Shown here one piece after another: positions 23,932 through 46,800 of a stretch of 64,000 bases of DNA (position 1 is the stretch's first letter; each line of letters starts with the position of its first letter). The notes beneath the pieces are model-generated. The model had not been told where the DNA came from. It did no database searches and saw only the letters and a program-made list of their open reading frames with translations. Position numbers and translations under genes: made by a program. The stretch is from Scenedesmus sp. PABB004 (lineage: Eukaryota): positions 186,001-250,000 of the forward strand of contig JABVCE010000024.1 of the NCBI GenBank assembly GCA_014905635.1, given 5' to 3'.

Positions 23932-26878
23932 ATGGCGCTCGTGCTGCGCCGCACCGCGGTCCTGGGGCGTGTCGGGCGCGCCCGGGCGGGCGCGGGCACC
24001 TGGCGCCCGCTCGCCGCGGCGGCGGGGGCCGGCGCCGGCGAGCCCGAGTTCCCCTTCTCGCGCCCGTCGGGCGCGGAGCCGCCGGCCGAGTACAAGGACC
24101 TGCGCGCGCGCTGCCCCGTGTCGCGTGCGCGCCTGTTCGACGGCACGCCGATCGTGCGCGCGCCGCGCCCGCGTCTGCCGCTGCGCGCTGCGCAGTCGAC
24201 GCTGGCCGCGCGGCTGAGCCGCTGCGCGCTGCGGCGGTGGCCGTCGACTGTTAGCCCCACTCACATCGCATGCCGCCCGCTCGCTGCCCCCGCCCAGGTG
24301 CTGCTGACCAAGATGGCCGACGTGCGCGCCGCGCTGAGCGAGCCGCGCCTGAGCAAGGTCGGTTGGCTCAGCGGCGGGCGCCGGCGCCGGCCGCGCGCTC
24401 GCGCCGCGCCGCGCCGGCTGCGCGCCCACGCGCGCCCCCGCGCCGCCAGGTGCGCACGCACCCCGGCTTCCCCGAGCTCTCGCCGGGCGCCAAGGCAGCC
24501 GTGGAGGGGCGCGAGGCGACGTTCGTCGACCTCGATTCGCCGGAGCACACCCACTTCAGGCGCGCGCGCGGCCGCCGCCGCTGCCGCCGCCGCCCGAGCA
24601 CGCCCCGCCGCCGCCGCCCCACACGCCCCCGCCGCCGCCCCAAACCCCACCCCGCCCGCTGCATGCAGGTCCATCTTCGAGCCGGGGTTCACCAAGGAGC
24701 GCGTCGACGCGCTGCGCCCCGCCATCACCGCGCACGCGGACGCCCTGCTGGACGAAATGAAGCTCCGCCGCTGGGCTGGCGGTGCGCTGCCGCGCCTGCA
24801 CGCTGCGCGCGCGCAGCTACACGCCGCGCGCGCGGGGCCTGCACGCCGCGGCCGCGGCGCCGCGCGCGCCGCAACGAGCGTGCCTCGCCGCGCCGCCGCC
24901 GCGCCGCCGCCGCGCAGGCGGCGACGCGGCCGACCTGCACGAGGGCTTCAGCCTGCCGCTGGCCTTCAAGGTCATATACGACCTCTTGGGCATCCCCAAC
25001 GAGGCGCGCTGGCTCGGCGGCAGCGCGCCGACACGCGGCCAGCGCGCCAGCGCGGCCAGCGCCGCTCTGCCGGCGCTGGCCCGGCGCCGCGCCGCGCCGC
25101 GCCGCGAGCTGCCCTCCTCTTGCGCGCCGCGCGCCCCGCGTCGCACGCGCCGCCGCGTGCCGCTGCCAGGACTACGCGTTCCTGTCGGGCAACGTCGCGG
25201 TGCGGGCGAGCGGGTCGTCCACCGCGCGCGACGCGGCGGCGGCGCAGGAGGCGCTGACAGACTACATGCGCAGGCGCGCGGGCGCGGCTTAAAGGGTTGA
25301 GGGGCTCAGAGCGCGGCGGGTCATCAGCGGCCGGCCCGGCCTGCCCCGGCGCCGCCACCCCGCGCCGCCGCGCCCGCCGCCGCGCCCGCCGCCGCGCCCG
25401 CCGCCGCGCCCGGTGCAGGCTGGTGGCGGCCAAGGTGGAGCGGCCCGACGGCGGGCTCATCAGCGAGGTCGCGGCGCGCGACCTGCAGGCCGGGCGCATC
25501 AGCCGCGACCAGCTCGAGGCGCACGCGTTTCTGCTGCTCGTCGCCGGTGCGGCGGCGCGCGCACTGCCGTCGCGCGACGGCGGCTGCTGCCGCCGCCGGC
25601 GCGCCGGGCGCGAGCCGGAGCCCACGCGCGCGCGGGCCGCCGCGGCGCCGCCGCGCCGTGCTGCGTGCGGCCAGGCAACGCGACGCTGGCGTCGATGATC
25701 AACCTGGGCGTCATCACGCTGCTGCAGGCGCGCTGTGCGCGCTGTGCGCGCACAGCGCTGTGCGAGCTGTGTGCCGTGCGCGCTGTGCGCCGTGCACGCA
25801 GCACGCAGCCCGGTCCCGCCCGCGCGCGCAGCCAACGCCGCGCCGCTGCCGTGCGGTGCGCCGCCGCAGCACCCCGGCGCGCTGGCCGAGATTCAGGCCG
25901 ACCCCTCGCTCTGGCCCCGCGCGGTCGCTGAGATCTGCCGCCTGCACACCGCCTCGGCCTACGCGCTGCGCCGCGTCGCGCTCGAGGCACGGCGCCGCCG
26001 CCCCGCGCGCCCGGCGGCGCCGCCGCCGCCGCTGCCGCCGCCGAGCCGCTGACCCGTCGCGCCGCCGCGCCGCGCGCCGGGCCGCCGCCGCCGCCGCCGC
26101 CGCCGCCGCAGGACGTGGAGCTCGGCGGCGCGGCCATCGCGGCGGGCGAGGGCGTGATCGCACTCAACCAGTCGGCCAACCGCGACGAGGTTGTTCGCGC
26201 CGCCGCCGCGGCGCGCGCCGCGCGCCGCCGCCCGGCTCGGCGAATGCGCTCGCGCGCGCGGGGTTGCGAGCCGCCGCCGCGGCGCCGCGCCGCGCGCGTG
26301 GCGCCTGCCCACACCCGCGTGCGCCCCGCGCGCACGCCGCGCGCCGCGTGCCGCCGGGCGCAGGATGTGTTCCCCGACCCCGACGCCTTTGATATGCGGC
26401 GCGACCCCAGCCTGCACGTGCGCGGCGCGGCGCGCGGCGCGCGGCGCGCCAGCTGTGGGTCGGCCGACGTCGGGGCGCGCGCTCAGCACCCAGCGCGCGC
26501 TCTGCATGCTGCCGCGGTGCGCGCGGGGCCGGCACCGCAGGTCGCGTACGGCGACGGCACGCACCGCTGCATCGGCGAGTACCTCAGCAACACCGAGCTG
26601 GAGGTCGGCCTGGAGCGCCTGTTCAGCAGGCAGGCCGCCGGGGCCGCGGCGGCGCCGCACCGGGGAAAGCCGCGGGCGCGCTGCCACGCGGCGGGCGCGC
26701 CCGAGTCTGCGCCCGCGCCCGCGCCGCGCGCAGGCTGCCGGGGCTGCGCCTGGCGGTGCCGGAGGCGGAGATCGCGTGGAGCCCGGCCGACAAGGACGTC
26801 GGCGTCGCGCGCCTGCCGGTCACGTGGCGCGTCGGCGAGACCAAGGCGGCAGACATCCGCTACAACCGCGCGTCGTGA
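23932..26878 (+). CDS. CYP55: Cytochrome P450 CYP55 (P450nor, nitric oxide reductase), 13 exons, with presequence
   Basis: FPFSRPSGAEPPAEY, VRTHPGFPELSPGAKAA, TFVDLDSPEH, I-helix FLLLVA|GNAT, EICRLHTASAYALRRVA, NQSANRDE and heme motif YGDGTHRCIG. Confidence 0.93.
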
Positions 26879-27349: not shown

Positions 27350-30300
27350 ATGTTGCGCCTGCTGCCGTGCGCGGCCGGCCCGCGCGCCCTGGGCCACCGC
27401 CCAGGGGGCGCAGGGGCGGCCACTGGCATCGCGACGATGCCCGTCGGCCAGCCGGCCCCGCGCTGGCGCGCCCAGCCGGGCAGGCGGCGCGGCGCGGCGG
27501 CTGCGGCGGCAGCAGCGGCTGCGCCGGAGGCCGACCGCAAGGCCCGGCTGAAGCGCCCCGCCCGCAAGCGGTCGGACGAGGAGGAGGTCGGCGAGGAGGG
27601 CATGCCGGAGCTGCCGCAGGTGCGTGCTGGGCGCGCGGCACGGCGGCGGCCCGTGCGCCGCCCTGGTCGGCGGCTCGCGCGTGCGTGCGGCAGCCCACGG
27701 CCGGCCGCGCCGCCCGTCCGCCGCCCCAGCCCCTGGACTACCAGCAGACGCTGGTCAAGTCGTTCACGCTCGGCGGCATCGGCCTGCACAGCGCCGAGTA
27801 CGGTGAGAGCGCGGTCGCGCACGCAGCGCGCCGCGCCGCGCGGCGTGCAGCGCCGCGCCCGCGCGCCCGCGCGGCCGCCGACGCGCCGCCCGCCGCGCCG
27901 CCGCGCCCGCAGCCGTGGTGCGCGTGCGCCCCGCGTACGCCGGCGAGGGCCGATACTTCGTGCGCGTGCCGCCGGGTGCGCCGCCGCCGCCGCAGCAGCA
28001 GCAGCAGCGGCCGCGGCCGCCGGCGCGCCGGCGCCGCGCTGGCGCGCTGCCGTGCGCCGCCGCGCGGGCCGTCCTGCGAGCCCCCAGCGCCCCGCCCTGA
28101 ACCCAGTCGTCAGCCCAGCCCTAAACCCTGAACCCTGCGGCCCCGCGCAGGCACCAACGGGGGGCGCTTTGTCTTTGACGGCGGCAACCTGCTCGACGAC
28201 GCGCCGGTCGACGAGGCGCTCGCGGTCGCGCCGGTGCCGGACGAGGTCGAGGACCTCAAGGTGCGTGGGTGTGTGCGTGGTTGGTTGGGGGGCTTGGTGC
28301 GCGCGGCTGGGTGTGTTTTTTTTCCTGCGTGTGCGTGGCTGCATGTGGGCTGGGCTGGTCGGGGGGCGTGGTGCGTGTGGCTCGGTGTGTTTTCTATGGC
28401 CGAGGGGGCGCGCGCCGCGCCCGTGCGCTGCCGGCCACCTCACCCGGCGCCGCGCCGCCGCGCCGCCGCGGCGCCACGCTGTGCAGGTCGAGTGGTTCTC
28501 GGCCTACCTGGCCGCCCAGGAGGACGAGGGATTCATCGGGACGTTCTCAGAGTTCCTGGAGGCGCAGGTGCGTCAGGTCTTTGGTTTGGTTTTTGGGGTC
28601 GAGGATCAGACAGCCAGCGCCGCGGCGCGCGTCACCTCCGACGCGCGGCCCGCCGCCGCCGCCGCCGCGCCGCAGGTGCGCGCGGGCGGCCTGGAGCGGT
28701 CGCTGCGCGCGCGGATGCTGGGCATTGACGCTGCGGCGGAGGAGGACGCGCTGGACGTGGAGCCAGAGTGAGCGCTGGGGCAGCGGCGCGCCGGCGCGGC
28801 GCAGCGCGAAAGGGCTGGGCGCGCGCGCGCCCGGGCCCGCGCACGCAGCCCACGCAGCAGCCTCCCGCCTTCCGTCCCGGCGCTGCGCGCCGACCGCGCG
28901 GCCGCCCGCCTGCCCCGCCCCGCCCCGCCGCGCGCGCGCAGCCTGTCGCTGGAGCCGGAGGACATAGTGGCGCTGGACCCGACCGACCCCACGCTCGTGC
29001 GCGCGGCCGTCGGCAGCGTGGCCACCACGGACCTGCCCTACACGCAGCTGGGCGAGGGCGACACGCGGGTGCGCGGCCACGGCGGCGGTGGCGGCAGCGT
29101 TGTTGTTGTTGGCTGCTGCGCCGGCGGCGCGCTTGGTCAGAAAATGCGCGGCGCGCGCCGGCGCGGCCCTCACGCAGCGCCGCCGCCGCCGCCGCCGCGG
29201 CCGCGCCGGCCGGCAGGTGATGACGGTCGAGCTGCTGCTGGCGGCGCTGGAGGCGAGCGGCGTCGACAACGCGCGGTGCGGCGCCGCTGGCGCGCTCTGC
29301 CGCGCTCTGCCGCGCTCTGCCGCGCTCTGCCGGCCACGGCCTCTTACCGGCGACGCTCACCGCCCCGCCGCCCCGGCCCCGCCTCCCGCGCGCCGCGCGC
29401 GCAGCATCGAGATCGAGGGCGGGCACGAGGTCCCGGTGTTGGATAACAGCGCGCTGGGGTGGTGCATCGACATCCAGTGCGCCCAGCTGCGCCCTGCGCC
29501 GCTCGCGCCGGGCGGCGGCGCGCCGGTCGCCGCCGAGGGCCAGGTCGCGCTCGGCCGGCGCGACCTGCTGCGCCCGCGCCAGGCCGTCGCGGTGCGCGCA
29601 CGCGCCGTCGCGCGCGCCGCGCAGCCGGCCGCCGCCGCCGCCGCGCTGGGTCGCTGATGTGAAGAGCCAGAATCAGACTCTGAACCTCGCCTTTTGAATC
29701 CGCGATTCAAACCGCCGCAGGTCCAGGACGACGAGGGCTGGATATCTTTTTTCCCGGGGCCCTTCCAGCGCCTCACCGCCGGCGTGGACCACAGCCGCGT
29801 CGCGCCCGTCATCGGCTGCCAGTGGCACACCTGGAACGCGGACGACGTGCACTTCAGGCGCGCGGCCGCCGCCCCCGCCGCACCGCGCGCCGCCGCCGCC
29901 GCCGCTGTGAACGCCGCGCGTCCCCGCTCACTCCCCCGCTCGCTCCGCCGCCCACTCCCCCGCTCGCTGCCCCTGCTCCCCCTCCCCTGCTCGCTCCCCG
30001 CGGCGCAGGTACTCGCTCGCGCCGGCGCGGGGCTACGCCGAGTCGCTCGACGCGCTGCTCGCGCTGCGCGACGCGGGGCACGTGCAGGCGGGGGCGGAGT
30101 CGCTCTACATCATCGCCGCGGGCGACCGCTGGTGCGGCGGCGCGCGGGCGCGCGGGCGCGCGGGCGCAGCGCGCAGGCGCGTGCAGCGGCGCGTGCAGCG
30201 GCGCGTGCAGCGCGCGGGCATGCGTGCAGCGCGCGACGGCGTGCGGGCGGGGCGGGGCGGGGTGCCGCCGCCGGCCGGCCGCCTCCCCTTCCAACCATGC

Positions 30301-30821
30301 TGCCGCCTCCAACCGCCCCCCCCCCCCCCAAAGGTGGGACCCGAGCATGCTGCGCATGGCGGCGGACGAGCCGGTGCGGCACAAGCTCGTCACGCTCGTC
30401 GGCAACCTCGCCCTGCTCGGCGGCCCCGGCGGGCAGGGGCTGCCGGTGGGCCACGTGACCGCTTACAACGCGAGCCCGGGGCTGCAGCTCCAGTTTGTGC
30501 AGACGCTCGCGGAGAGCCTGGCCGGGCCGGAGGACTTTGCCTCGTTCGGCGACGTCCTGTCGGCGCAGGACGCGTGGCTGCGCTGGAGGTACGGCACAGG
30601 TGAGGAGGAGGCGTGGCGCGCGCGGGCAGGGCTGAGGGTTGTGGCGGCGGCCGCGGGGCGCGCGGGCGCACGGCAGCGGACGCACGGCGGCAGCGTGGCA
30701 GCACGGGGCTGCGCTCAGCTCGCGCCGCCCTCGCCCACCGGCGCGCGCGCGCGCAGGCCTGGTGGAGGAGCTGGAGGAGCTGGAGGAGCTGGAGGGCGAC
30801 GACGAGGGGGGCGCGGAGTGA
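27350..30821 (+). CDS. LpxC (UDP-3-O-acyl-GlcNAc deacetylase)-like protein, probably catalytically inactive
   Basis: [73 protein letters not shown] and DEPVRHKLVTLVGNLALLG follow the LpxC motif order. Several Zn/catalytic residues are substituted. Confidence 0.85.
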
Positions 30822-30998
30822 CGGCGGCGCGCGCGCGCCGTGCCCGGTCTGGCCCTCGCGCAGGCTGGTCCGGCGGTCGGGCGCCAGGTGGGGCTCGCTC
30901 GGCAACCGCAACTTACACACAACGGACGCATGACCGCCGCGCGCCAGCCTGCCGGCCGAGCCTAGCGCAGCGGCGGCGCCGGCGGCATCAGCGAGCGC
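30360..30998 (+). repeat. 639-bp direct duplication, copy 1 (LpxC last exons, 3' UTR, last codons of the convergent ankyrin gene)
   Basis: Matches 37820-38458 at a constant offset of 7460, with about six substitutions seen by eye. Confidence 0.97.
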
Positions 30999-31354
30999 TC
31001 ACAGGGTGGCGATCGCTTCACCTGACCGAGAGCGACAGTGGCGCATTCAGCCGGCGATCCTGTCGCGATCAGATCGTTGTGAACGCTATCGGCAAGAGCT
31101 CGGGCCGGTTCACAGCGTTCGTACGGGCGCCAGGCGGTGGAGACGTGTAGCAGCAAATTGATGGACCGGTGCGCTCTCTTCCCCGGGCGTCGCCGAGCTC
31201 ACGCAGGCACTGCGAAGTCCGTAAGTCATTCAATCGGCATCGAAATCAGCACCGCACAGCCCCCAGCGCGCCCTGCGGCCCGCGACCCGCGTCGAAGCGC
31301 CCGTCCCGCAGCGCTTAGGGCCTCCGCGCCCCCCTCTTCTGTGAGCCTGGAGGC

Positions 31355-34300
31355 ATGAAACCGCCCGTCATGGTCGCGGTGAGCCGCTGCGAGCCGCCCG
31401 TCACGCTTTTGGAGCGAGCACGATCGAGCGTTCCGGCCGGCCAGCCCGTGGCCAGGAGCACGCTGGTCGCAGTCGCAACATTACGTTCTGACCTCTAGCG
31501 TCAGCCTTCGCTTGCGAGACGGGCTGCACTGAGGCGTCACTGCCCGCCCCTGCTGACACGCAGGTCGTGGCCGTGCTGGTGCTTCTCACCCACTGCGCAC
31601 GCCCAGGTGCGCAGGCGCCTGCCTGTAGGCGCTGCCCATTGCGCCAGGAATCTGACGCCCTGCGCGCCCGCAGCCGCCGCAGCGGTGTGCCGCCAGGTGC
31701 ACGACCCTGCCGGCGCCCCGGTCTACACATCGAAGTGTGGCGCTGGCTCCTTCGTGCAACAGATGCCTTTCTGCACTCGTGTGCAATACACGCAGAGCGG
31801 CGCGCAGACCTGCTCCGACGGCTCGCTGTGGATCGAGATTGAGCTGGGCGGCACGCGACCCTGGCTGCGCCTCGCGACGCCCGGTGGCCAGAGCTCGGTG
31901 GCCGAGTGTCCCGCCAACCTCTGCCCCAACCCCACGTCCGGTGCGGCTGGTGCTGCGCGCAGGCGTCGCTCAAGCGCCGCGCTTTGAGCTGCTCTCTCAC
32001 CCACCGCTCTCACTGCTGTTGCGTGCTGTGCCCTGGCCGCGCCCGCAGACGGCACGGGCTGCCGCCAAGTGCACGACCCGTATGGATCGCCGCTGCAGGA
32101 GCAGCCCTGCGCCTCCGGCAGGGCGCTGTCGACCGTGGGCTTCTGCCAGGAGGTCCGCGCAGTGCTTGCATCGGGGAGTTCCATCAAGTACAGCTGCCCT
32201 GATGGCTCCTGCTGGGTCGAGGTCACAAGCAATGGCGCGAGAGGCTACTGGCAGCGCATTGGCGGCAGCAGCACCGCCTGCAACAACGCCGACTACTCCA
32301 GCCTGGCCAACTGCCCAGCGGATCGTTGCACAGGTGCGCCTGCCTTGGGTGCTCGGCACGACCTGCGCCGGCGACGCGGCGCGACGGGCCCGTGGCGCGG
32401 AGCGCCGGGCCCGCGGCGGCGCGCCAGACGGGCAAGGTTTGACGCTGCGCACCCGCACGGGCGGGTGCGTGCTGCCGCCGACGCTGCACGTCCCTGACAG
32501 GAACGCAAAAGCACGGCAACAATGGTGCCGTGAGCTGCACCACCTTCTGCCAGGGCGCGCAGTGGGGCCAGGCCTACGCACGATGCGTGTCGGCGTACGA
32601 CACGGCGGCGCGCAAGGGGGTGTCCTGCGATACCGCGGTCGGTGTGACTAGCTCTGAGCTCACATGCTTCTGCAAGGGTGGGTGCGGGAGCAGCAGGCTT
32701 GCCAAGGCCATTGGCAAACACTCAAACGCCCCCCCCCCTGCCCCCCCCCTCTCACGCACACACATGACCACAACTCACGCGCCCCACTCTTGACCGCTCT
32801 GCAGATGCCATCAGCGACCCCTGCGCTGGCAACAGCTGCAGCGGCCACGGCACCTGCTCCAACGGTGTGTGCCAGTGCACGGGCGGCTGGAGCGGCAGCC
32901 GGTGCGAGACGGCATCAGACCCGTGCGCTGGCATCAGTTGCAGCGGCCACGGCACCTGCTCCAACGGTGTGTGCCAGTGCACGGGCGGCTGGAGCGGCAG
33001 CCGGTGCGAGACGGCATCAGACCCGTGCGCTGGCAACAGCTGCAGCGGCCACGGCACCTGCTCCAACGGTGTGTGCCAGTGCACGGGCGGCTGGAGCGGC
33101 AGCCGGTGTGAGACGGCATCAGACCCTTGCGCTGGCAACAGTTGCAGCGGCCACGGCACCTGCTCCAACGGTGTGTGCCAATGCACGGGCGGCTGGAGCG
33201 GCAGCCGGTGTGAGACGGCATCAGACCCTTGCGCTGGCATCAGTTGCAGCGGCCACGGCACCTGCTCCAACGGTGTGTGCCAGTGCACGGGCGGCTGGAG
33301 CGGCAGCCGGTGCGAGACAGCGCCAGGTGAGCTTGCGGAGTGTTGCCTGGGCTTTCCGCAGCTGATATCAGTTGCGTAGTGGAGCAACCGTCGTTGCTGC
33401 CGCCTGCCTTGCAGTTGCAGGCTCTGCTGGCTGCCGCCAGGTGCACGACCCTGCCGGCGCCCCGGTCTACACATCAAAGTGTGGCGCTGGCTCCTTCGTG
33501 CAACAGATGCCTTTCTGCACTCGTGTGCAATACACGCAGAGCGGCGCGCAGACCTGCTCCGACGGCTCGCTGTGGATCGAGATTGAGCTGGGCGGCACGC
33601 GACCCTGGCTGCGCCTCGCGACGCCCGGTGGCCAGAGCTCGGTGGCCGAGTGTCCCGCCAACCTCTGCCCCAACCCCACGTCCGGTGCGGCTGGTGCTGC
33701 GCGCAGGCGTCGCTCAAGCGCCGCGCTTTGAGCTGCTCTCTCACCCACCGCTCTCACTGCTGTTGCGTGCTGTGCCCTGGCCGCGCCCGCAGACGGCACG
33801 GGCTGCCGCCAAGTGCACGACCCGTATGGATCGCCGCTGCAGGAGCAGCCCTGCGCCTCCGGCAGGGCGCTGTCGACCGTGGGCTTCTGCCAGGAGGTCC
33901 GCGCAGTGCTTGCATCGGGGAGTTCCATCAAGTACAGCTGCCCTGATGGCTCCTGCTGGGTCGAGGTCACAAGCAATGGCGCGAGAGGCTACTGGCAGCG
34001 CATTGGCGGCAGCAGCACCGCCTGCAACAACGCCGACTACTCCAGCCTGGCCAACTGCCCAGCGGATCGTTGCACAGGTGCGCCTGCCTTGGGTGCTCGG
34101 CACGACCTGCGCCGGCGACGCGGCGCGACGGGCCCGTGGCGCGGAGCGCCGGGCCCGCGGCGGCGCGCCAGACGGGCAAGGTTTGACGCTGCGCACCCGC
34201 ACGGGCGGGTGCGTGCTGCCGCCGACGCTGCACGTCCCTGACAGGAACGCAAAAGCACGGCAACAATGGTGCCGTGAGCTGCACCACCTTCTGCCAGGGC

Positions 34301-37300
34301 GCGCAGTGGGGCCAGGCCTACGCACGATGCGTGTCGGCGTACGACACGGCGGCGCGCAAGGGGGTGTCCTGCGATACCGCGGTCGGTGTGACTAGCTCTG
34401 AGCTCACATGCTTCTGCAAGGGTGGGTGCGGGAGCAGCAGGCTTGCCAAGGCCATTGGCAAACACTCAAACGCCCCCCCCCCCCTGCCCCCCCTCCCTCT
34501 CACGCACACACGTGACCACAACTCACGCGCCCCACTCTTGACCGCTCTGCAGATGCCATCAGCGACCCCTGCGCTGGCAACAGCTGCAGCGGCCACGGCA
34601 CCTGCTCCAACGGTGTGTGCCAGTGCACGGGCGGCTGGAGCGGCAGCCGGTGCGAGACAGCGCCAGGTGGCTGCGTGGCCAGCGGCCAGCCTGTCAGTTG
34701 TGAAGGAGGGTCTGTCTTCCAAGCAAGCCAAGGTGACACCCTAGCGCAGATCGCTGCAACCCTGTGCCAGGCTGACCTCACGAGCGTGGCGGCTGCAAAC
34801 ACGCACATCCACGACGCGGGCCATCTGTGCGCTGGCGACGGCGTGTGCTGCCCTCCTACTGAGACCCTGCCTGGTGACCTGCGGGCTGCGGCGGGCGGCG
34901 CGACGGGTGCAGAGCACGCGCCGCAGCTCCCAACGGCGCTGCCGCACGCTGCGCGCGCGCCGCAGTTGAGCAACTCTACACCGAGTGTCGCCAGGTGGCG
35001 CCAAGCGTTAGCCTCATGGTGAGCAGCGCCCCATGTGGTAAGGGGATGACCCTGTCCAAGGTGCTGCCGGCATGCACCCGCTTTGAATACGTGGTGGGCG
35101 TGAGGATTGATGACTGCCGCTTAAGCTTCGGAGTTGCCAACTACTGCACGTGGGTGAAAATTCGCTACGCTGCCGGCACAGGCGCGCTGCAGACCGGCTG
35201 GGTGACAGCAGCCTGCATGGGATCAGCCCAAGTCACGTACTGCCCTGCCACCGGCTGCCCGGCCCAAGGTGGGCGTGTGTGCATGCGAAGGTTGTCGCCC
35301 GCGCCACACGCGCGCACATGCACCCTCTACAAACACGCCGCCGCGCGCTGCCGCCACAGCGCCCGCGAGCACCTGCCGCCAGGTGACCACGGGAGAGGAG
35401 CTGACGCTGCGGGAGAAGCCTTGCTTCGGCTCAAACCCCGTGACGCTCGGCGGCGCTGGTGTCGTGCTCCATCGCGATGACACCTTCACCGTCTCCAACA
35501 CCGACTCCAAGCAGGTCTCCACGTGCGGCACCACCACCCCGCCCGACCCGCCGGGGCGCGCGCTGTGCTGGGTGCAGGCCGCCGCCAAGGGCGCCACCGG
35601 CTGGCTGCCCGTTGGGCGCGGCACGTTCAAGGACGCGTTCTGCGCCGGCGGCGCGGCGGGCGCGCCGCAGCCCGAGTCGTTTGTGACCGAAACGTGCGCT
35701 GCAGCGTCGACGTCAACGCAACTGGCCATGCCGGTGGCTGACTTGTACTACGTCTCGTCGTGCTTCGGCAAGCGGTCGATAAGCTATGGCAGCAAGGATC
35801 ACAAGGGCCTCGACCTCGCTGTCTACATGGTCCCGGTCTTTGCGGCCGCGGCGGGCGTCGTCACGCTGGGCTCGCAGCCCTGCCTGGGCTCGACCGCCGG
35901 CGGGGGAAACTACGTGACCATCAAGCACTCTGACACACTCTCCACTCTCTATATGCATCTGGACAGCTTCTCCGTGGCAAACGGCGCAACGGTGGCCCAG
36001 GGCCAGCAGGTGGGGGTGTCGGGCACGAGCGGCATGTGCGGCGGCAGCAGCTACCACCTGCACTTTGAGGTCCGGGCGGGCGGGACGGCCATCAACCCCC
36101 TGGCCTGCCTCCCGGAGCTCAAGACCAAGTCCACCAGAGACGCGGGCTACAAAAACTGCGCCGATTCCAAGCCCGACGCGCGGTGCACCAAGCCCGCGCA
36201 GCCCACGCAACCGCCAGTTGGTGAGTGTGCACGAGCTGGTCAGGCGCCAAGCCTTGCCAACCGCGCCCATTTGCTTGCTTGCATATGCTCGTTCTGGTTT
36301 AGGCTGTGCCCGCGTGATGCGGCCGCGTGCTCACCATCCCCGCGCTGCCCCGCAGGGTCGCTGGACAGCGTGGACCAGGCGCAGCTCACCAGGGCGTTCC
36401 TGGCCAACCAGGCGGACGGCGTGTGCCCCTCCCAGGACCCGAGATACTTCCAGGCGGCGTTCAACGCGTTGCTGGTCAGGCAAGACCGCTACGACGGCAA
36501 GCGCGGCGTCGACGTCGCCGGCGTCACGACGCCGCGCGAGCTGGCCATGATGCTCGCGCACGTGATCTCCGAGACCAGCTGCCTTAGCTTGCGGCGGGAG
36601 TCCAACTGCTACCAGGCCAACTACCAAAATGGCAATGCGCAAGGGGGTTGCCCGGCGAGCAATTACTACTGCGGCCGCGGGTACCTGCAGCTGACCAACT
36701 GCGGCCTCTACCAGGCGTTCCAGGGCGCGCTGACCAGCGACGCGCGCCTCGCGCGCCTCTTCCCCGGCGTCGACGTCGTGCAGCGCCCCGACGCCATCTC
36801 CGACAGCGAGGACCTTTCCTGGGAGGCGGCCTTCTTTTTCTGGCGGACGCGGATCAGGGGCGCCGCCAACGTCGGCCTGCTCGACGCCGGCGGCTTTGGC
36901 GCGACGCTGTGCACGCTCAACGGCGGCGAGTGCGGCGACGGTGGGCACAGCCAGAACAGCCTCGGCCTCACGCAGCCGTCCGGCTGCGCCGCCGTCGCGC
37001 GCTTCCGGTGGTATCGCAACATACTGGCCGTGCTCGCGCCCGGCGTGCCCGCGATCGGGGACGGCTGCTACGCGTTTGTGCACAGCAGGTGCCAGGGCCT
37101 GCTCGACCCCCCCGGCGGCACGGGCCTGTCCGCCGGCGCCGCCGCCAACGCGTGCGCGACGGCGCGGTGCACGATACAGCGCCCCCCTGCCAAGGCAGGC
37201 GCCTGGACTTGCGTCAACCGCGCCACCTGCACGCGCGCGGGTGGCGCCCCGGTCGTTGGCAAGTGCCCAAACGATCGGTTCGGGCTGTGCTGCGCTGGCA

Positions 37301-37356
37301 TGCGGCTGAACCCAACCGAGTTCCAGGGGCTTCCTGGTGACACGACCCGGCCGTGA
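31355..37356 (+). CDS. Secreted 1509-aa mosaic hydrolase: signal peptide, SH3b-like x2, Cys domain, EGF x5, SH3b-like x2, Cys domain, EGF, LysM, SH3b-like x2, M23 peptidase, GH19, Cys-rich tail
   Basis: Exons 31355-31378, 31564-31606, 31674-31940, 32049-32333, 32501-32677, 32805-33326, 33421-33684, 33793-34077, 34245-34421, 34553-34873, 34966-35268, 35360-36220 and 36356-37356 join via GT-AG introns into one open frame (4530 nt). Signal MKPPVMVAVVAVLVLLTHC; LysM QGDTLAQIA..VAAAN..LCAGDGVCCP; M23 HKGLD, GNYVTIKH, YMHL, HLHFEVR..INP; GH19 ELAMMLAHVISETS..RE, YCGRGYLQLT, AAFFFW, FGAT..LNGGEC. Confidence 0.9.
31688..34668 (+). repeat. Intragenic tandem duplication (period ~1744 bp) covering exons and introns of the SH3b-SH3b-Cys-EGF block
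   Basis: 31688-~32910 is nearly identical to 33432-~34660, introns included. The two units differ mainly in EGF copy number (5 vs 1). Confidence 0.97.
32816..33325 (+). repeat. Five tandem 102-bp coding repeats encoding EGF-like modules (DPCAG[NI]SCSGHGTCSNGVCQCTGGWSGSRCETA[SP])
   Basis: Units start at 32816, 32918, 33020, 33122 and 33224 and show six-Cys EGF spacing. Confidence 0.97.
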
Positions 37357-37819
37357 CTAAGGTTGGCGCTACTGCACCGCACTGCATCGCTCCGCACTGC
37401 AATGCGCTGCGCTGTGTTTTGAAGTATCACCGTCTGCTAGCTCAACACAATCACCGCTGCATCAGCCGCCTGGGGCGCGAGCCAGGTCAGCGATGTCATG
37501 CACATGTTGTCCAAGCGTCCATAGCTGCAATCATTGCCAAGTTGTTTTCTTGAAGGGAAGCTTTTCCTCGTTTCCGCGCTCAGTGTCCATTTCCAACTGA
37601 AGTCCTCTACGTGCGAACTACTGTCCCTGAGCACTTCACGGCATCGCTGCGCTGCATCAGCCACCTGGGGCGCGAGATCCAGGTCAGCGCACAGAGGCAG
37701 GTTTCGTGCGTGGTGGTGTTTGTCGTGGGCAACGTTTTGGTTGACGAGGGGGGGGGGGGCGCAGAGCAACGGCAGCCCTCGCGCGTGAGGCGGGCTAGTT
37801 TGCAACCGCAACTTACACA

Positions 37820-38458
37820 CGGCGGACGAGCCGGTGCGGCACAAGCGCGTCACGCTCGTCGGCAACCTCGCCCTGCTCGGCGGCCCCGGCGGGCAGGGGC
37901 TGCCGGTGGGCCACGTGACCGCTTACAACGCGAGCCCGGGGCTGCAGCTCCAGTTTGTGCAGACGCTCGCGGAGAGCCTGGCCGGGCCGGAGGACTTTGC
38001 CTCGTTCGGCGACGTCCTGTCGGCGCAGGACGCGTGGCTGTGCTGGAGGTACGGCACAGGTGAGGAGGAGGCGTGGCGCGCGCGGGCAGGGCTGAGGGTT
38101 GTGGCGGCGGCCGCGGGGCGCGCGGGCGCACGGCGGCAGACGCACGGCGGCAGCGTGGCAGCGCGGGGCTGCGCTCAGCTCGCGCCGCCCTCGCCCACCG
38201 GCGCGCGCGCGCGCAGGCCTGGTGGAGGAGCTGGAGGAGCTGGAGGAGCTGGAGGGCGACGACGAGGGGGGCGCGGAGTGACGGCGGCGCGCGCGCGCCG
38301 TGCCCGGTCTGGCCCTCGCGCAGGCTGGTCCGGCGGTCGGGCGCCAGGTGGGGCTCGCTCGGCAACCGCAACTTACACACAACGGACGCACGACCGCCGC
38401 GCGCCAGCCTGCCGGCCGAGCCTAGCGCAGCGGCGGCGCCGGCGGCATCAGCGAGCGC
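37820..38458 (+). repeat. 639-bp direct duplication, copy 2; contains an orphan 3' fragment of the LpxC-like gene (37820-38281) and the true 3' end of the ankyrin gene
   Basis: Near-identical to 30360-30998. It starts mid-exon (ADEPVRHKRVTLVGNL) with no upstream LpxC exons. Confidence 0.95.
38373..38377 (-). promoter_or_regulatory. Candidate TGTAA polyadenylation signal of the ankyrin gene
   Basis: TTACA on the + strand, ~45 nt past the minus-strand stop at 38422-38424. UGUAA is the established chlorophycean poly(A) signal. Confidence 0.5.
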
Positions 38459-41400
38459 GCAACAGCACGCAGCAGCTCGGCCGCCTGCTCGTGCGCCGGC
38501 GTCAGCGCGGCGCACTGCGCCGGCTGCTGCTGCTGCACGGCGCCGACCGGCGGCAGTGGCGCACAGGCGCTGGCAAAGCCCGCGCGCAGGTGGGGCGGCA
38601 GCGCCGCGAGCGCCGCAGGCGAGGGCCGCGCGGCGGGCGCCGCGCCGGCTGGCGCGGCGGTGGCGGTGCCGCCGGCGGCAACGCCCCCGCGCAGGTGCGG
38701 CGGCAGCGCCGCCTGCGCGGCCGCAACGTGCACCGCCGAGGCGGCGCGGGGCTCGGCCGCTGCCGGCCCATCGCGGCCGCGCAGCGGCGAGCTCCGCCGC
38801 GGCGCCGCCGGTTGCGCTGCAGGCGTCGGCTGCTGCTGCTGCTGCTGCTGCTGCCACTCCTGCTGCGGCTCCTGCTGCGCCGCGTGCTGCTCCTGCTGCT
38901 CCTGCCCCAGCTGCCCGCCCTGCTGCGGCGCCTCCTCGCCCTCCTCCTCGTCCGGGGTGCCCTCACCCAACGACCGCCGGGCCAGCCGCTCCTTCTCGTG
39001 CTGGCGGCGCCGCTGCGCCGCCTCCTGCTCGCGGCGCTGCCGCTCCTTGGCTGCCTTGGCCGCCTTGGCTGCCTTGCCGCTCGGCTTGGCCGCCGCCGGC
39101 GCGCCCCCCGGCGAGCCCAGCGCCTCGATCATAGCGGCCAGCGCGTCGACGTCGTCCGCCGGCGCCGCCGCCGCCGCGCGGCCGCGCCGCCCGCGTCGCC
39201 CGCGTCGCCCGCGCCGCCGTCGTCCGCGGCCGCGCCGCCCAGCGCGCCCGCGCCCCCGCGCAGCTGCCTGCCCCGCTTCTCGGCGGCCTTGAGTCGCCAC
39301 TCGATGTAGGAGGCCTGCGAGACCAAGGGTGGTGGGGGCGGTGCCGGCGTGAGGGGCGGGGGCGGCGCCCGAGGCCCGCGGCTGCGCGCGGGCGCGGGCG
39401 ACGCGGACGCGCCAGCGCGCGCGGCTGTGCGCGGCGGGCGGCGCACGCTCTGGCCCAGCTTGGTCGCGAGCAGCCTGGCCACGCTGTGGAAGCCCTGGCC
39501 CTGCCGCCATGGCGCGCCGGCCTCGACGAGGAGCAGCACCGACTCCATGTGCCCAGACTGCGCCGCTGCGGCGGCGGCGGGCTGGCGCGCGCGGGCGCGC
39601 GTCGGCTGGAGCACGGCGCCGCGGCGCTGCGCGCGCCGCCCCGCCCGGCCCCTGCCCCCGCCAACCTGTCTGGACGGCTCCGAAGCCGGCGCGCGAGGGC
39701 CGGGGGTCGGTCTCTGTCAGGTCCGCGCCCGCGTCTGCGCGCCGCGGCGCGGCGCGGCGCGGCGCAGCGGGGGTGTATCGGCTGGGCAGCCTCCGAGCGC
39801 GCGCGCGCGCGCAGGCAGGCAGGCGGCTGGCGCGCGCCGCTCCCACGCGTCCGCCAGGCCACCCGCGCCGCGCCGCGCCACGCGCCGGGCCGCCAGCGCC
39901 GCGCGCACCGATGAGGATGCGCAGCGTCTCTGGTTTGGGCCGCATCGCTGCAGCGAGCAGGGGCGTCAGCCCCGCTTACTTGGGGTCACTGCCGGTCCAG
40001 GGCAGGCTGACATCGGCGCTGCACTTGACGAGCGCGCGGACGAGCTGCGGCGCCGGCGGCGCGCCGCGGGCGCGGCGTCAGCGCCGCGCGGCGCCAGCGG
40101 TGTGCGCGGGGCGGCAGGGGCGCGGCGGGGCGGGGGATGACCAGGGCAAGGGGCCCGGGGGCGCAGGGGCGCGGCGAGGGGGGGATGGCAAGGGCAGCGC
40201 ACCTCCACCTTGTCCGTCAACGCACACGTCAGCAGCGCCGTGCAGCCGCAGGGCGACGGCACGTTGAGCGGGCAGCCTGCCGCCGCGAGCGCCCGCAGCA
40301 GCGACGGCTGCACGCCCGGGCCGTGCACCACATTCCAGACGAGCTGAGCCGGCGCGAGCGCCGCCGCGTCGGGCGCCGGCCCAGCCGCGAGCAGCGGCCG
40401 CCGGCCGCCGCGGCCGGCAGCCGGCGGCGCGCCGCCCGGGCGCGGCGGCGCGGCGCGCGCGCTGGCGGCGAGCAGCGCCGCCACGCACGCGGTGTGGCCC
40501 TGGTGGGCAGCGATGTCGATCGCTCGCGCCCTGTCCGCGGCGCGCGGCGCGTCGAGATCAATGCCGGGGCAGCGCGCGAGCGCGGCCAGCGAGACCTCCG
40601 CGCCGTTGCGGGCCGCCAGAGTGAGCGGCGTCTCCCCGTTCCACGCCAGGCCAGGGTTGGGGCCGCCCGCCGCGCCCGCCAGCAGCTCGATGATCGCACA
40701 CTGCTCCAGAGCCGTGCCCAGCGTGTCGCCCGGCGCGGCGCCGCCGGCGGGCAGGCTGCCGTCCACGCACGGCGCGCGCCGGAGCTCGGCCAGCGCGTCG
40801 GCCAGCGCCTGCCCCTGGGGCAGCGCCGCGTCGTGGTTCGGCACGACGTTGCAGGCCGCGAGGTGCAGCGGCGTGGCGCCGGCGAGCGTCCATTCGGCGC
40901 CGCCGTCGCCCGCGCCGCCCTCGTCGCCCGGCGGCGGCCCCGCCTCGGCGCCGGGGTCCGCGCCGTGCTCCAGCAGCAGCCGCACCGCCGCGAGGCACCC
41001 CGCGCCGCCGGGGTCGACGCCGCGCCCCTGGGCGGCGTAGAGGCCACGATACGCCTCGGCGAGCGCGGCGTGCTGCGCCGGCGTCGAGACCTCGGCCCGG
41101 GGCGCCACAGCGAGGTGCAGCGGCGCGATGCCCGTGCGCGGCGTGCGCGCGTCGGGGCACGCGCCGGCGGCGAGCAGCTGCAACACCGCCGCGGCGTTGT
41201 GCGCGATGGCAGCGTAGTGCAGCGGCGTCCAGCTCAGCGCGGCGTCACGAGTGCAGAGCACGTCTGCGTGGTCGCGCAGCAGGCCCGCGTCCAGCGGCTG
41301 CGGGCGCGGCGGCGGGGCGCGGGGCGCGGGGCGGGGGTCGGCCGGCGCCACGCACGGGGCGGCGCAGCGGGCGCCGCGGCTGTCGGCACGCCGGGCCCAC

Positions 41401-41903
41401 GCTGCCTCCGCGGCCGCACCTGGTCCGGCTGCGCCCACAGCGCCGCGTGCAGCGGCGTGTCGTGCGCGCGGCCCGCGCAGGCTGCCGGCGCCGCGGGCTG
41501 CTTGGCGTCCGCGGGCTGCGAGGCGTCCGCGGGCTGCTTGGCCGCCGCGGGCTGCTTGGCGTCCGCGGGCGCGGCCGCTGGGGCGGCCGCCTCGCCGACG
41601 CCGCGGCTGCGCGGCCTGCCGCCGCCGGAGGCCGCCTCGCCGCCGGCCGCCCCGCCGCCGGCCGGGCGAGCGGCACCCGCACTGCTGCTGCTGCCCGCCC
41701 GCTCGCCCGGCCCCGGCCGCTGCGCCGCGCGCGCGCCGCGTGCGGCACGGCCGAGCAGAGCCCCAGACATGAACTGCAAGCCGGACGAGGCGCCGCCGCC
41801 GCCGCCGCCGCCGCTGGCGGGCGGCGCGCGCTCGCGGGTGGGTGCGCCGCCGCCGCCGCCGCCGCTGCCGCCGCTGGCGGGCGGCGCGCGCTCGCGGGTG
41901 GGT

Positions 41904-42665: not shown

Positions 42666-43806
42666 CTAGCTGTGCACCTTCACGCTCCTTTCCACGGGCG
42701 TGCGGCAGTAGGGGCACGAGGCCAGCGCGCCGCGCGTGCTCAGCGTGTCGGCGCACTTCTCGCACAGCACGAGGTGCTTGCAGGGCAGGAGCAGCACGCG
42801 GCGCGGGCCCTCAAAGCAGATGACGCAGGGTTTCGAGCGTCGAACGGGCGCCTCGCCCGCGCCCGCGCTCGCGCCCGAGCCGCCCACAGGCGCAGGCGAC
42901 GGCCGCCCCGGCGGCGCGGCAGGCGCCGCCGCGGCCACGGCCCGGGCCGGGCCAGGCGGCGCCTGCGCCTGCCCCAGCGGCACGGCCACCGGCACCGCGA
43001 CCGGCACGGCAATCGGCACGCGCGCCTGCGCAGGCGCCGGCGGCGTGCCCGCGAGGGGCGCGGGCGCCCCGCCGCCGCCAGCGCCGGGCCGGGTGTGCAT
43101 GAAAATCGGGTTCAGGCTCCCCCGCCACTGCTCAAGCAGCGCCACGGCCGCCGGCGCGCTGCCGCCGGCGGCAGGCGCCGGCGGCGCGGCCGGCGGCGGC
43201 TGCCGCAGCTGCTGCGGCGGCGCCACCACGGCCGGCGGCGCCTGCCGCTGCGGCGGCGCCGGCGACGGGAGCGCCGCAGTCGCCGCCGGCGGCTGCTGCT
43301 GTTGCCGCGCCTGCTGCGGCGGCTGCTTGCCTGGCCGCTGCGCGCCGCTGTCTGCGGCGGCCGGCTGCTGGGCGCCGGCCGGCGACTGCGGCGCCTGGGC
43401 GCTGCCCGGCCTGCTGCTGCTCGCGCTGCTGCCACCGCTCGCGCCCACACGGGCGTCCACTGCCGGCTTTTGCTTGCGCTTGGGCTCCAGCTGCTGCCAG
43501 CTCTCCGCCTCGTCCGGCTCCGCCTGCTGCTGCCACTCGAGCTTTAACAGGTCAATGGCCGGGAGGGCCTCCTGCGGCGCCTGCTCCCCCGACGGCAACG
43601 CCTGGCGCTGCTGCTCCGCCGCCTGCTCCGCCCGCCCCTCCTCGCCGTCCTCCCCGTCGGTGCCGCTCCCAGAGGAGCCGCTGCCGCTGCCGCGCGCCGC
43701 CGCCGCGCGCGCTTGCCGGCGCGCCGCCTCGGCCTGCTGCTGCTTCTGCCGCTGCTTTTCCCGCTCCTTGTCCTTCTTGCTCTTGGCCTTGCTGCTCTGT
43801 TTGGCC

Positions 43807-43844
<38 letters not shown>

Positions 43845-46800
43845 GAGGCCCTCGATCGCCGCCGCCAGCGCCTCAATGTCCAGGTCGGGCGACGCCGCGG
43901 CGGCGGCGGCCGCGGCCGGCCGCGGCTGCTGCGGCCCCGCGCCGCGCTGCTTCGCGGCGCCCGCGCCCGCGGGCGCGGGGCCGAGGCCCGCGACCGCCGC
44001 GACCGCGATCGTCGCCGCCGCGACGTCGGGCGCCGCGCCGGCGAGGTGCGGCTGCAGCAGCGCGGCCGCGTTGGCGCGCCGCTGCTTGTGCGTCTTCTCG
44101 GCCAGCTTCAGCCGCCCCTCGACGAAGCTCAGCTGCGGCCGCGGGACGCGCGGCGGCGGAATGAACAACGCCGCGCGTGCTGAAGCGCGCGCGGCGCCGG
44201 CGTCCGCGCCGCGGGGCGTGCCACGGCGCCGGCCGCACCTTGAGGTTGTGGGCGTTGATGGCGAGCATCTCTGGGACATAGAACACGTTGCCGTCGCGGA
44301 TGCGCGCGACGCCCTGCGGCAGCCGCCACGACCCGCCCGCCTGCACGAGGCGCACGACCGCTTCCAGGTTCGCGCAATTGGCGGCTGCGCCGCGCGGCGG
44401 CGGCGGCGGCGCCGGCGGCGGCGGCGCGTGGGCGCGTGGGCTGGCAGCTCGGGCGCGGGCCGGCCGGCAGCAGGGGGCGCGGGCGCGCCGCACCGGTCTG
44501 CACGACGTCGTAGTCGGTGCGGGGGTCAATGAAGCTCTCCAGGTCGGCGCCCGCGTCTGCCGCGCGGCGGCGGCGGCGGCACGCAGTGGTGCTGCGGCAG
44601 CGGCGCGCAGTGCAGCGCGGCACGCGCCGCGCTGGTGCTCGGCGCGGCGGCGCACCGAGCAAGATCTGGATGATGTCCACGTTGCCGTCCATCGCGGCGG
44701 CGGCGAGCGGCGGCGGCCTGGTCGGCGTCGGCGCGTGGTTGACGCACGCGCCGGCGCGCACCAGCACCTCCACGAGCTGCGCGGGCGGGCGGCGCGGCGG
44801 GGGGCGCGGTGGAGGCGGCACGGCGCTCGGCCGCGCGGCGCTCGGCGGTGCAGTGCGCCCAGCGCTGCCAGCGCGGGCCGCGGCGCCGCCTGCGCATGGC
44901 TGCCAGCGCACCGCCGCGTCTTTGTATGACAGCGCGATCGAGAGCGCCGTCTCGTCGGTGTCGGGCTTCACCTCTTCAAGCCAAATGTCGCCACCCTGTT
45001 ACGAGAGCGGCGGGCGGACGTGGACGCGGATGCGGGGGGGGGGGGGGAGGGGGGTGTCGCCGTCACGCGCGAGAGGCGCGGGGTGCCGCCGCCGCGCGGC
45101 GCAGCGCGCGGCCGCCGCGGCGCGCGCGCCTGCGAGAGTATGGCCTGCAGCAGCACGACGGTTTTCTGGCTGTCCTCGCACTGCAGCGCGTTGATGACCA
45201 TGGCTTCAGGGCGCAGCCCCCACTCCGTGGCACCGTCATACAGCTCAGCTTGCTTGTGCGGCGGCACCACGTCGGCGCGCAGCGCGGGCGGCGCGTCGAC
45301 GAGCAGCTGGCACGCGGTGCTGAGGTTGGAGCGGTGCAGCGCGAGGTCGACGGGCCGCACGCCGTCGTACATGCGCGGCAGGTTGGGGTCGGCGCCTGCC
45401 GCGAGCAGCGGGGCTGCGCGGCGCGGCGCGGCGGCGCGGCGGCGGGGGGTCGGCGTGCCCGCCACGGGCGGCGCCACCATGCTGCGGCGGCTGCGGCGGC
45501 TGCGGCGGCTGCGGCGGCGGTGGCGGCGGCGGCGCCCGCGGCGGGGTCGGGACGCACCCACGAGGTGCCAGGCGTCTGCATACGCGGCGCAGGTCAGGGG
45601 CGTCTCGTCGGTCTTGTCCTCGTCGGCGTTGGGGTCTGCGCCGGCGGCGAGCAGGAGCTCCATGCACTCCAGGCTCCTGGCGCAGCAGGCGCTGCCCGGG
45701 CAGCTGGGGTGGCTGGCCAGCAGGTGCAGCGGCGTCACGCCCGCAAACGCGCCGCCGCGCACGGGCGCCGGCTCCGCGCCGTGCGCGAGCAGCAGCTCCA
45801 CCAGCTCAGGGTTGTCGCAGCCGGTGACGTTGGACACGTACAACTGCGCGCGCCGCGGCGGCGCGCGGCGTCGGCCCGGCAGCACGCGTCGCGGCGCGGC
45901 GCGGCGCGCGGCGAAGCGAGCGCGGCACCTGCAGGACGCGGAAGGAGACGGGGCCGGTGAAGTTGCGCCACTCCTTCTCGCTGCACAGGTCTGGCAGGCA
46001 CGCCAGGTGCAGCGGCGTCAGCCCGCACTTCGGCTCGGGCGCGACCGGCGACGCGCCGGCCGCGAGCAGCTGCCGCGCGAGCGGCACGTTGCCGGCCGCC
46101 GCAGCAAAGTGCAGCGCGGTCCAGCCGTGCGTGAGGTGTTCGAAGTCGTCGCCGGCGCCGTCGCAGTGCAGCCGCAGCTTCATGATGCCCACCAGCTCCT
46201 CGGCGGTCGCCCAGCTCTGCGCGGCGCGCCCGCCGGCGCGGCTGAGCGCTGCCGGCCGGCCGGCACGCGGCGCGCGCCGGAGGGGGGGCAGCGGCGCGCG
46301 CACCTCCGGCAGGCGTCGCAGCTTCCCGGCACCGTCCGCGGTGCAGAACTTCAGCACCAGCCGCTTGCGCTCTGCCGCCTGCGGCCCGGCGGCGGCAGCG
46401 GCGGCGGTGGCAGCAGCGTCGGCTGCGGTCGCGGCGCAGCCGGGCGCACGGGCGGCAGCAGCGGCGCCGCGCGCGCTGGCTCACGCTCGGCTTGGGCTGC
46501 ACCCGGGCCGCATCCAGCGCGGCGGCCGCGACCGCGGCCTCCACCGTCGGCACGCCGCCGGCGCCGCTCGGCTCGGCCTGCGGCTTGCGCGCGCCCGGGG
46601 TCCTCGCCGCCTCAGCGGCCGCCGCCTCCTGCGCGGCTGCACCCGCGGCTGCCCTGCTGCAGTAGCTGTCGGCGCTGGCGGCGCCGGCGCTGGCGCCGCT
46701 GCCCGTGGCGGGCGCCGCGGGGCCTCGCTTGCTGAAGGCGCCCCTCAGCCCCGCGAGGCTCTTCAGGCCGGCGCCGCCGGCGCGCCGGCCGTCGCCGCCC

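Follow-up and report, generated by a model that had tools for sequence, protein, structure and literature searches.

The transposon-free insertion of whole intron-containing genes is poorly resolved in eukaryotes. For the transposed genes of Arabidopsis, an anatomy has been described in which an intron-containing, non-transposon gene is bracketed by direct repeats of genic sequence, with tabulated repeat lengths of 35–287 bp (Woodhouse et al., 2010; PMC2869330). In the part of that report drawn on here, defence-type families were over-represented among these genes, and excision as a circle followed by re-insertion was proposed as their mode of movement. A green-algal example of several hundred bp of host sequence being duplicated around an insertion is provided by the Dualen LINEs of Chlamydomonas reinhardtii, where the duplications flanking Dualen-4b have a median length of 900 bp (PMC9977147). 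In yeast, template switching during break-induced replication and gene conversion has been studied experimentally; it involves invasion at limited or diverged homology, a jump at microhomology and a resulting duplication, and switches between diverged sequences were described as robust (PMC4215184).

The locus analyzed here was found in Scenedesmus sp. PABB004 within a stretch of 64,000 nucleotides, in the following called the window (C18:186001-250000 of an assembly of 39.97 Mb in 80 contigs), which has a GC content of about 80% and genes with short GT-AG introns, a composition and intron style that would fit a chlorophyte green alga. Its anatomy is that of the transposed genes, since repeats of host genic sequence flank an intron-containing gene. 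Judged from the sequence, what appears to be new is how long the repeats are (639 bp here and about 1 kb in a second case), a junction with homology of two ages, the recurrence between convergent gene ends in both cases and the architecture of the cargo; in addition, no parental site was found. In contrast to the Dualen duplications, the sequence inserted here is no LINE, lacks a tail and kept its introns, and no Dualen-like element was found in the genome. Template switching, which is experimental in yeast, was here inferred from one natural junction. Table 1 lists the coordinates of all features.

Table 1. Features of the focal locus (positions refer to the window).
Feature	Position	Strand	Remarks
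LpxC-like host gene	27700..30821 (5′ limit approximate)	+	Stop at 30819-30821, within the left repeat copy
Left copy of the 639-bp repeat	30360..30998	+	Working LpxC-like 3′ exons and stop; dead copy of the ankyrin end
Imperfect microhomology	30920..30928	+	7/9 identical to the repeat start (30360-30368)
Insert, 6,821 bp	30999..37819	.	GC 0.68 compared with ~80% around; single-copy in the genome
Predicted hydrolase gene, 1,501 aa	31370..37356	+	Hand-built model; 13 exons, 12 GT-AG introns
Internal repeat copy 1	31688..32913	+	Two SH3-like units (by eye), Cys-rich unit, one EGF
Five 102-bp EGF-like repeats	32803..33321	+	PF07974, E 4e-22
Internal repeat copy 2	33432..34661	+	Flanking intron unlike that of copy 1
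SH3-like domain	35362..35703	+	Six metagenomic relatives, 43-56% identity; paralogue on contig C12
M23 peptidase domain	35797..36099	+	E 4e-22; HxxxD and HxH zinc motifs
GH19 chitinase/lysozyme-like domain	36409..36948	+	20 bits compared with a Pfam cut-off of 25.5
Older diverged copy of LpxC tail and 3′ flank	37727..37801	+	Matches about 30800-30901
19-bp identity block	37802..37820	+	Equals 30902-30920, inside the duplicated target
Right copy of the 639-bp repeat	37820..38458	+	Working last 11 ankyrin codons, stop and 3′ flank; dead LpxC fragment
Ankyrin-repeat host gene	38422..41438 (5′ limit approximate)	-	Convergent with the LpxC-like gene

The initial annotation of the window had described 639-bp direct copies with about six substitutions, of which the left completes the LpxC-like gene and the right the ankyrin gene. 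The borders proved to be exact, and the stops of both genes were located in the respective copies; 38422-38458 comprises the ankyrin gene's stop and its final 11 whole codons. The copies are offset by 7,460 bp and differ by six substitutions (30387, 30581, 30675, 30678, 30703 and 30931; five transitions and one transversion) with no gaps, which corresponds to an identity of 99.1%. Two of the six differences affect the coding part of LpxC, where each replaces an amino acid (from the left to the right copy, L to R in one case and R to C in the other). They would fit changes derived in the dead right copy, with the polarity read without an outgroup. The further claim that deletion of one copy plus the insert restores a simple tail-to-tail locus was also borne out: after removal of 7,460 bp in silico, the stops of the LpxC-like and the ankyrin gene are 140 bp apart. 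The geometry of the repeat would permit the same 7,460 bp to loop out.

For LpxC (PF03331), two matches were obtained genome-wide, corresponding to the two repeat copies, and, the dead right-copy fragment aside, the LpxC-like host gene is the sole match. In its protein, the ELLLAAL motif seems to be without His and HKLVT without Asp, so that two zinc ligands would be missing; despite being the only LpxC match of the genome, it may be non-catalytic. When the LpxC exon was searched against metagenome contigs, none of 596 pattern matches was confirmed as a related locus. A public protein model, P0161 (2,432 aa, labelled lpxC), was found to fuse an upstream gene and the LpxC-like gene with the greater part of the hydrolase and with the right copy's LpxC tail. 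Its source label names a green alga, and the protein is near-identical and apparently from the same locus. It is probably a mis-annotation, with read-through splicing as a further possibility, and illustrates how the arrangement of the cassette misleads annotation. Being a fusion of these genes, it provides no independent evidence for the architecture of the hydrolase.

Two other genes of the window were noted beside the locus. The intron-rich gene at 23932-26700 we take, by eye, to resemble a cytochrome P450, either of bacterial type or of the type of the fungal nitric-oxide reductases. A second ankyrin gene (42666-45885, minus strand) lies in tandem with the one that borders the repeat and ends in a RING-like motif (by eye), which is absent from the bordering gene.

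The right junction, overlooked in the initial annotation, consists of a diverged tail, followed by 19 bp of identity and then by a jump back to 30360. The tail aligns over 57 columns at an identity of about 85%. Two deletions, each of about 25 bp, are present in it, as are insertions of 6 and 9 bp, and its GC content is 0.69 compared with 0.83 in its LpxC-tail counterpart. It was spotted by eye and tested afterwards, in GC-rich sequence and with an alignment that needs four or five gaps; whichever of the two scoring schemes was used, its anchored score exceeded those of all 778 background anchors (32 compared with 30.75 for the best of these, and 36.25 compared with 28.0). The unanchored score was reached by 5 of 1,232 sequence windows, which is a moderate result. 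The changes in the tail are mostly transitions (7/8 or 6/9 depending on the scheme; p 0.003 or 0.04). Together with the loss of GC, this is what decay over time would give, and it would be unlike repair filler.

For an 18-mer of the identity block, three matches were found in the genome with up to one mismatch, all of them at this locus. The 7/9 match to the start of the repeat was reached by 2 of 1,000 upstream positions. On the minus strand, the 18-mer contains TGTAA at a place where the poly(A) signal of the ankyrin gene could lie, and UGUAA signals were reported to peak near −17 in chlorophytes (PMC1868727). As a cause of the conservation of the 18-mer this signal was rejected, since the frequency of TGTAA in 350 kb of the genome did not exceed that of control pentamers. 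At the left junction, the same anchored and unanchored tests gave no comparable trace of diverged homology. The flank of the insert holds two ages of homology to the locus, with a divergence of about 15% and 0.9%, respectively. Since the 639-bp copies are only 0.9% diverged, the tail is older than these, and the junction preserves two time layers.

A search of the genome with the whole insert returned two short weak extra matches only, and both non-coding ends matched only themselves. The donor copy that the initial annotation had suggested looking for was not found in the genome; the only paralogous sequence is a distant SH3-like domain on contig C12. In the right non-coding part of the insert (59% GC), a 40-bp direct repeat with 92.5% identity was observed (37455-37492 / 37650-37689). 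A minus-strand frame of 142 codons (37437-37865) gave no Pfam match.

The predicted hydrolase gene has no internal stop and encodes 121 Cys residues; the N-terminus is hydrophobic by eye and represents a putative signal peptide. Its GC3 is 0.84, compared with 0.93-0.96 in three host exons, and the GC content of its introns is 0.71 compared with about 0.82. The two copies of the 1.23-kb internal repeat are 99.4% identical, introns included, and lie between unlike flanks, which suggests an older duplication that was subjected to conversion. For the SH3-like domain, Atlas neighbours carry PF08239 (scores 0.93-0.94), the relative P0069 matches PF08239 with an E of 0.016, and the fold matches listed for a model with a pLDDT of 61 all contain SH3, at E 0.31 or worse. 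These concordant results weakly suggest that the repeated domain is SH3-like. Folding of the SH3-M23 exon from its sequence alone gave a model of too low confidence for use (pLDDT 36), and with the SH3-like alignment as query, related loci were confirmed in none of 49 pattern matches from metagenome contigs and none of 21 from viral contigs.

The M23 domain scored 78.7 bits against a cut-off of 28.7, with the zinc motifs visible in the alignment. These motifs are also present in the known M23 peptidases of the LytM and ShyA type. The core of the GH19-like domain aligns with GH19 chitinases (Streptomyces-type, and plant class IV by the best solved-structure matches), with an E of 2e-10 for the solved chitinase 2cjl, and includes the first glutamate in an HET-like motif. 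With the GH19 exon alone, no homologue was obtained at E ≤ 0.001 among 7,152 candidates. The segment at about 34715-34860, which by eye we take to resemble LysM, had no Pfam match to LysM at E up to 1. In contrast to known M23 and GH19 proteins, both domains are here fused in one spliced, Cys-rich protein of 1,501 aa with EGF and SH3-like repeats. No full-length relative with the same architecture was found except P0161, and no description of it was found in the literature, of which the coverage was thin for subscription journals. From the domain content we infer a secreted enzyme that would bind and cut bacterial or fungal walls, and the cargo is a candidate algal defence enzyme uniting bacterial-type wall-cutting domains.

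By following the SH3-like paralogue, a second cassette was reached at C12:292198-297980. Its direct repeat (292198-293226 / 296963-297980) comprises 917 matches, 39 transitions and 23 transversions, which is 94% identity excluding gaps, and this repeat of about 1 kb is a mosaic of a near-identical central tract and diverged tracts. The duplicated sequence is the 3′ end of a gene on the minus strand, which faces a plus-strand gene that is FKBP-TPR-like by eye. The repeats bracket a single-copy stretch of 3.7 kb (GC 0.68) with an eight-exon gene of about 300 aa, for which one intron border is approximate. The gene has a hydrophobic N-terminus and a GC3 of 0.82, and one exon gave an NMT1/THI5-like lead. 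Nearby, at C12:299000-304000, a paralogue with SH3-like and RCC1-like parts was observed, which has a host-level GC content (about 0.79) and a make-up like that of P0001.

The focal cassette is outside every transposon family tested. The initial annotation had seen neither transposase nor terminal repeats, and this was confirmed: no terminal inverted repeat was found in the insert, three candidate ends giving 5, 9 and 2 matches of 20, and Pfam scans of the insert frames, which covered most but not all exons, found no mobility domain. Terminal inverted repeats, a short target duplication and other copies of the ends, by which a cut-and-paste DNA transposon is recognized, were not found. For tyrosine-recombinase elements (Crypton, DIRS), there was no recombinase in the insert and no match to PF00589 in the genome, a search that is weak for absence; the 18-mer is confined to the locus. 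As a LINE, the insert had no significant match to 30 RT loci, no RT domain in the scanned frames and no tail at either end.

An autonomous Dualen element would combine APE, RT, RNase H and RLE. From 33 RT matches, three LINE families were read, and these consist of APE and RT and have no RNase H; a PF00075 search, which scores only the best candidates, had no match either. No long flanking duplication was present around LINE family B in the five copies read, and family A lies in satellite arrays, which makes it uninformative on target duplications. A young 6.5-kb APE+RT LINE family (L057:5309-10000, with relatives on C12, C24, C44, C77 and C5) was found near contig ends; its protein begins with a Tudor-like domain (N-terminal), and the element has a short tandem-repeat tail. 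Another retroelement (L046:4087-9390, on C31) encodes a polyprotein with RT, RNase H-like, integrase, C-5 cytosine methylase and PHD finger parts, and an RT region near-identical to it (99.97%) is located on C21.

For the origin of the locus we propose, with about even confidence, a two-step scar without a transposon, in which template-switching repair later enlarged an old insertion that had a short duplication at its flanks. In the old step, the intron-containing hydrolase gene would have entered the 140-bp gap between the tail-to-tail host genes, and its arrival would have duplicated a short target of at least about 30800-30998, since only with such a duplication are the 3′ ends of both neighbours retained. 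What was not needed of the right copy would then have decayed to the present 37727-37801. In the recent step, a break would have been repaired by a 3′ end from the right flank that invaded the intact target at the 19-bp block, the template being the left copy, a sister or an empty haplotype. Copying would have proceeded to about 30928, slipped back by 560 bp at the 7/9 microhomology to 30360 and continued forward again, leaving the 639-bp repeat of today with its 99.1% identity. The order of these events is read from one sequence, and the repair pathway is likewise deduced from it. As the left junction has no diverged trace, the two-step model must assume that the block there stayed homogenised. 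The mosaic repeat on C12 and the internal repeat that is 99.4% identical between unlike flanks suggest that local repeats are re-copied in this genome.

The initial annotation had named single-crossover integration of a circular DNA or a template-switch duplication as possible origins. Template switching stands as the likeliest maker of the 639-bp copy, whereas an origin in one step is not supported, since older diverged homology of the kind found at the right end of the insert arises neither from a simple duplication of the target nor from a simple single crossover. Nevertheless, a more elaborate single event can be formulated, in which a loose linear fragment was end-joined at a long staggered break, the 639-bp copy being the filled-in overhang and 37727-37820 patchwork filler. 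Every piece of the junction does map within the duplicated target, with order and orientation unchanged, and the left junction is sharp; a paper on POLQ in Chlamydomonas exists (PMC8495919), which would count in the same direction. Such a capture is unlikely in view of the tail, which is older than the 639-bp copies and shows five transitions and no transversion in its first 35 aligned bases. This is a far larger number of changes than the error rates of repair polymerases would give.

A 7.46-kb circle of one target copy and the insert, entering the empty site by a single crossover, would yield exactly the final geometry seen, and this is the model that was proposed for the Arabidopsis genes with genic direct repeats (PMC2869330). 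The composite junction must already have been present in such a circle, which would therefore account for a spread between haplotypes and not for the origin. With no donor copy in the genome and no match to a tyrosine recombinase in an exon-by-exon search that is weak for absence, we regard the circle as an improbable source.

The lower GC3, the lower intron GC and the diverged tail would be explained together if DNA of a diverged relative, with the gene already at the locus, had invaded via the tail of about 85% homology, slipped and integrated in one event. The 6- and 9-bp indels keep the frame of the LpxC tail, which speaks for the same reading. A low GC content is, however, no proof of a foreign donor, since an equally low GC content is found in tandem arrays of Cys-rich secreted-type genes that are resident in the genome, and the gene in the second cassette has a GC3 of 0.82. 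The left end also has no diverged host-like sequence, and introgression is thus distinctly improbable.

That 639 bp is far longer than a target-site duplication, as initially claimed, is too strong a statement in view of the median of 900 bp for Dualen-4b in C. reinhardtii (PMC9977147). A Dualen-type LINE that made a long target-site duplication and carried or primed the insert is nevertheless very improbable and largely refuted: young LINEs with 97-99% identity between copies do occur in the genome, but nothing beyond APE and RT was seen in the three families read, the search for RNase H (PF00075) among the best candidates had no match, and neither LINE sequence nor a tail is contained in the insert, which retains 12 introns. 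An assembly artefact by haplotype mis-join or chimera is likewise very improbable. The copies differ by substitutions only and mostly by transitions, the older homology ties the insert to the locus, and the insert shares the splice style of the host and has a paralogue of one of its domains elsewhere in the genome. In addition, C12 carries an older cassette with this anatomy, and multi-kb satellite arrays were resolved by the assembly. Of the sequencing runs, none contained over 7% of the words of the stretch (the one listed was a freshwater metagenome, with no RNA run listed), a share that is evidentially neutral.

A survey of 470 kb (310 kb around the window and 160 kb of C12), which is a non-random sample, yielded 19 low-GC islands and 14 direct-repeat rows. 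Two clear cassettes were among these, including the focal one; apart from one unclear case, the rest were tandem or internal repeats, or islands without repeats. A candidate third and older cassette is located at C12:309211-313652, where a 361-bp direct repeat with 87% identity surrounds 3.7 kb with a GC content of 0.76. One further case in 406 kb corresponds to about 100 cassettes per genome, with a 95% interval of 2-550 for this non-random sample. The second cassette suggests that the process recurs in this genome and makes it testable by PCR and population reads.

A wider reading is tentative and rather doubtful. It would see here a recurring, transposase-free gain of accessory secreted genes, which land between tail-to-tail neighbours and survive only with a long duplication that restores both 3′ ends. 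Such genes would then be kept over long times as presence/absence cassettes, which loop out and enter empty alleles again, perhaps tens to hundreds per genome, the present one being a wall-cutting antibacterial or antifungal enzyme of undescribed architecture.

Two further regions were considered as cassettes and rejected. The region at C12:346-362 kb, with a 3.9-kb repeat of 99.5% identity, is an ordinary tandem triplication, and 58-59 kb of the window is a low-GC intergenic stretch. The triplication (C12:346159-361663) contains a Cys-rich secreted-type gene with a GC content near 0.70, of which the middle copy appears to be frameshifted. On C18, inverted repeats of 200-550 bp with 95-99% identity were observed at 176147-179552 and 345002-350821, where they surround about 2-5 kb of sequence with host GC content.
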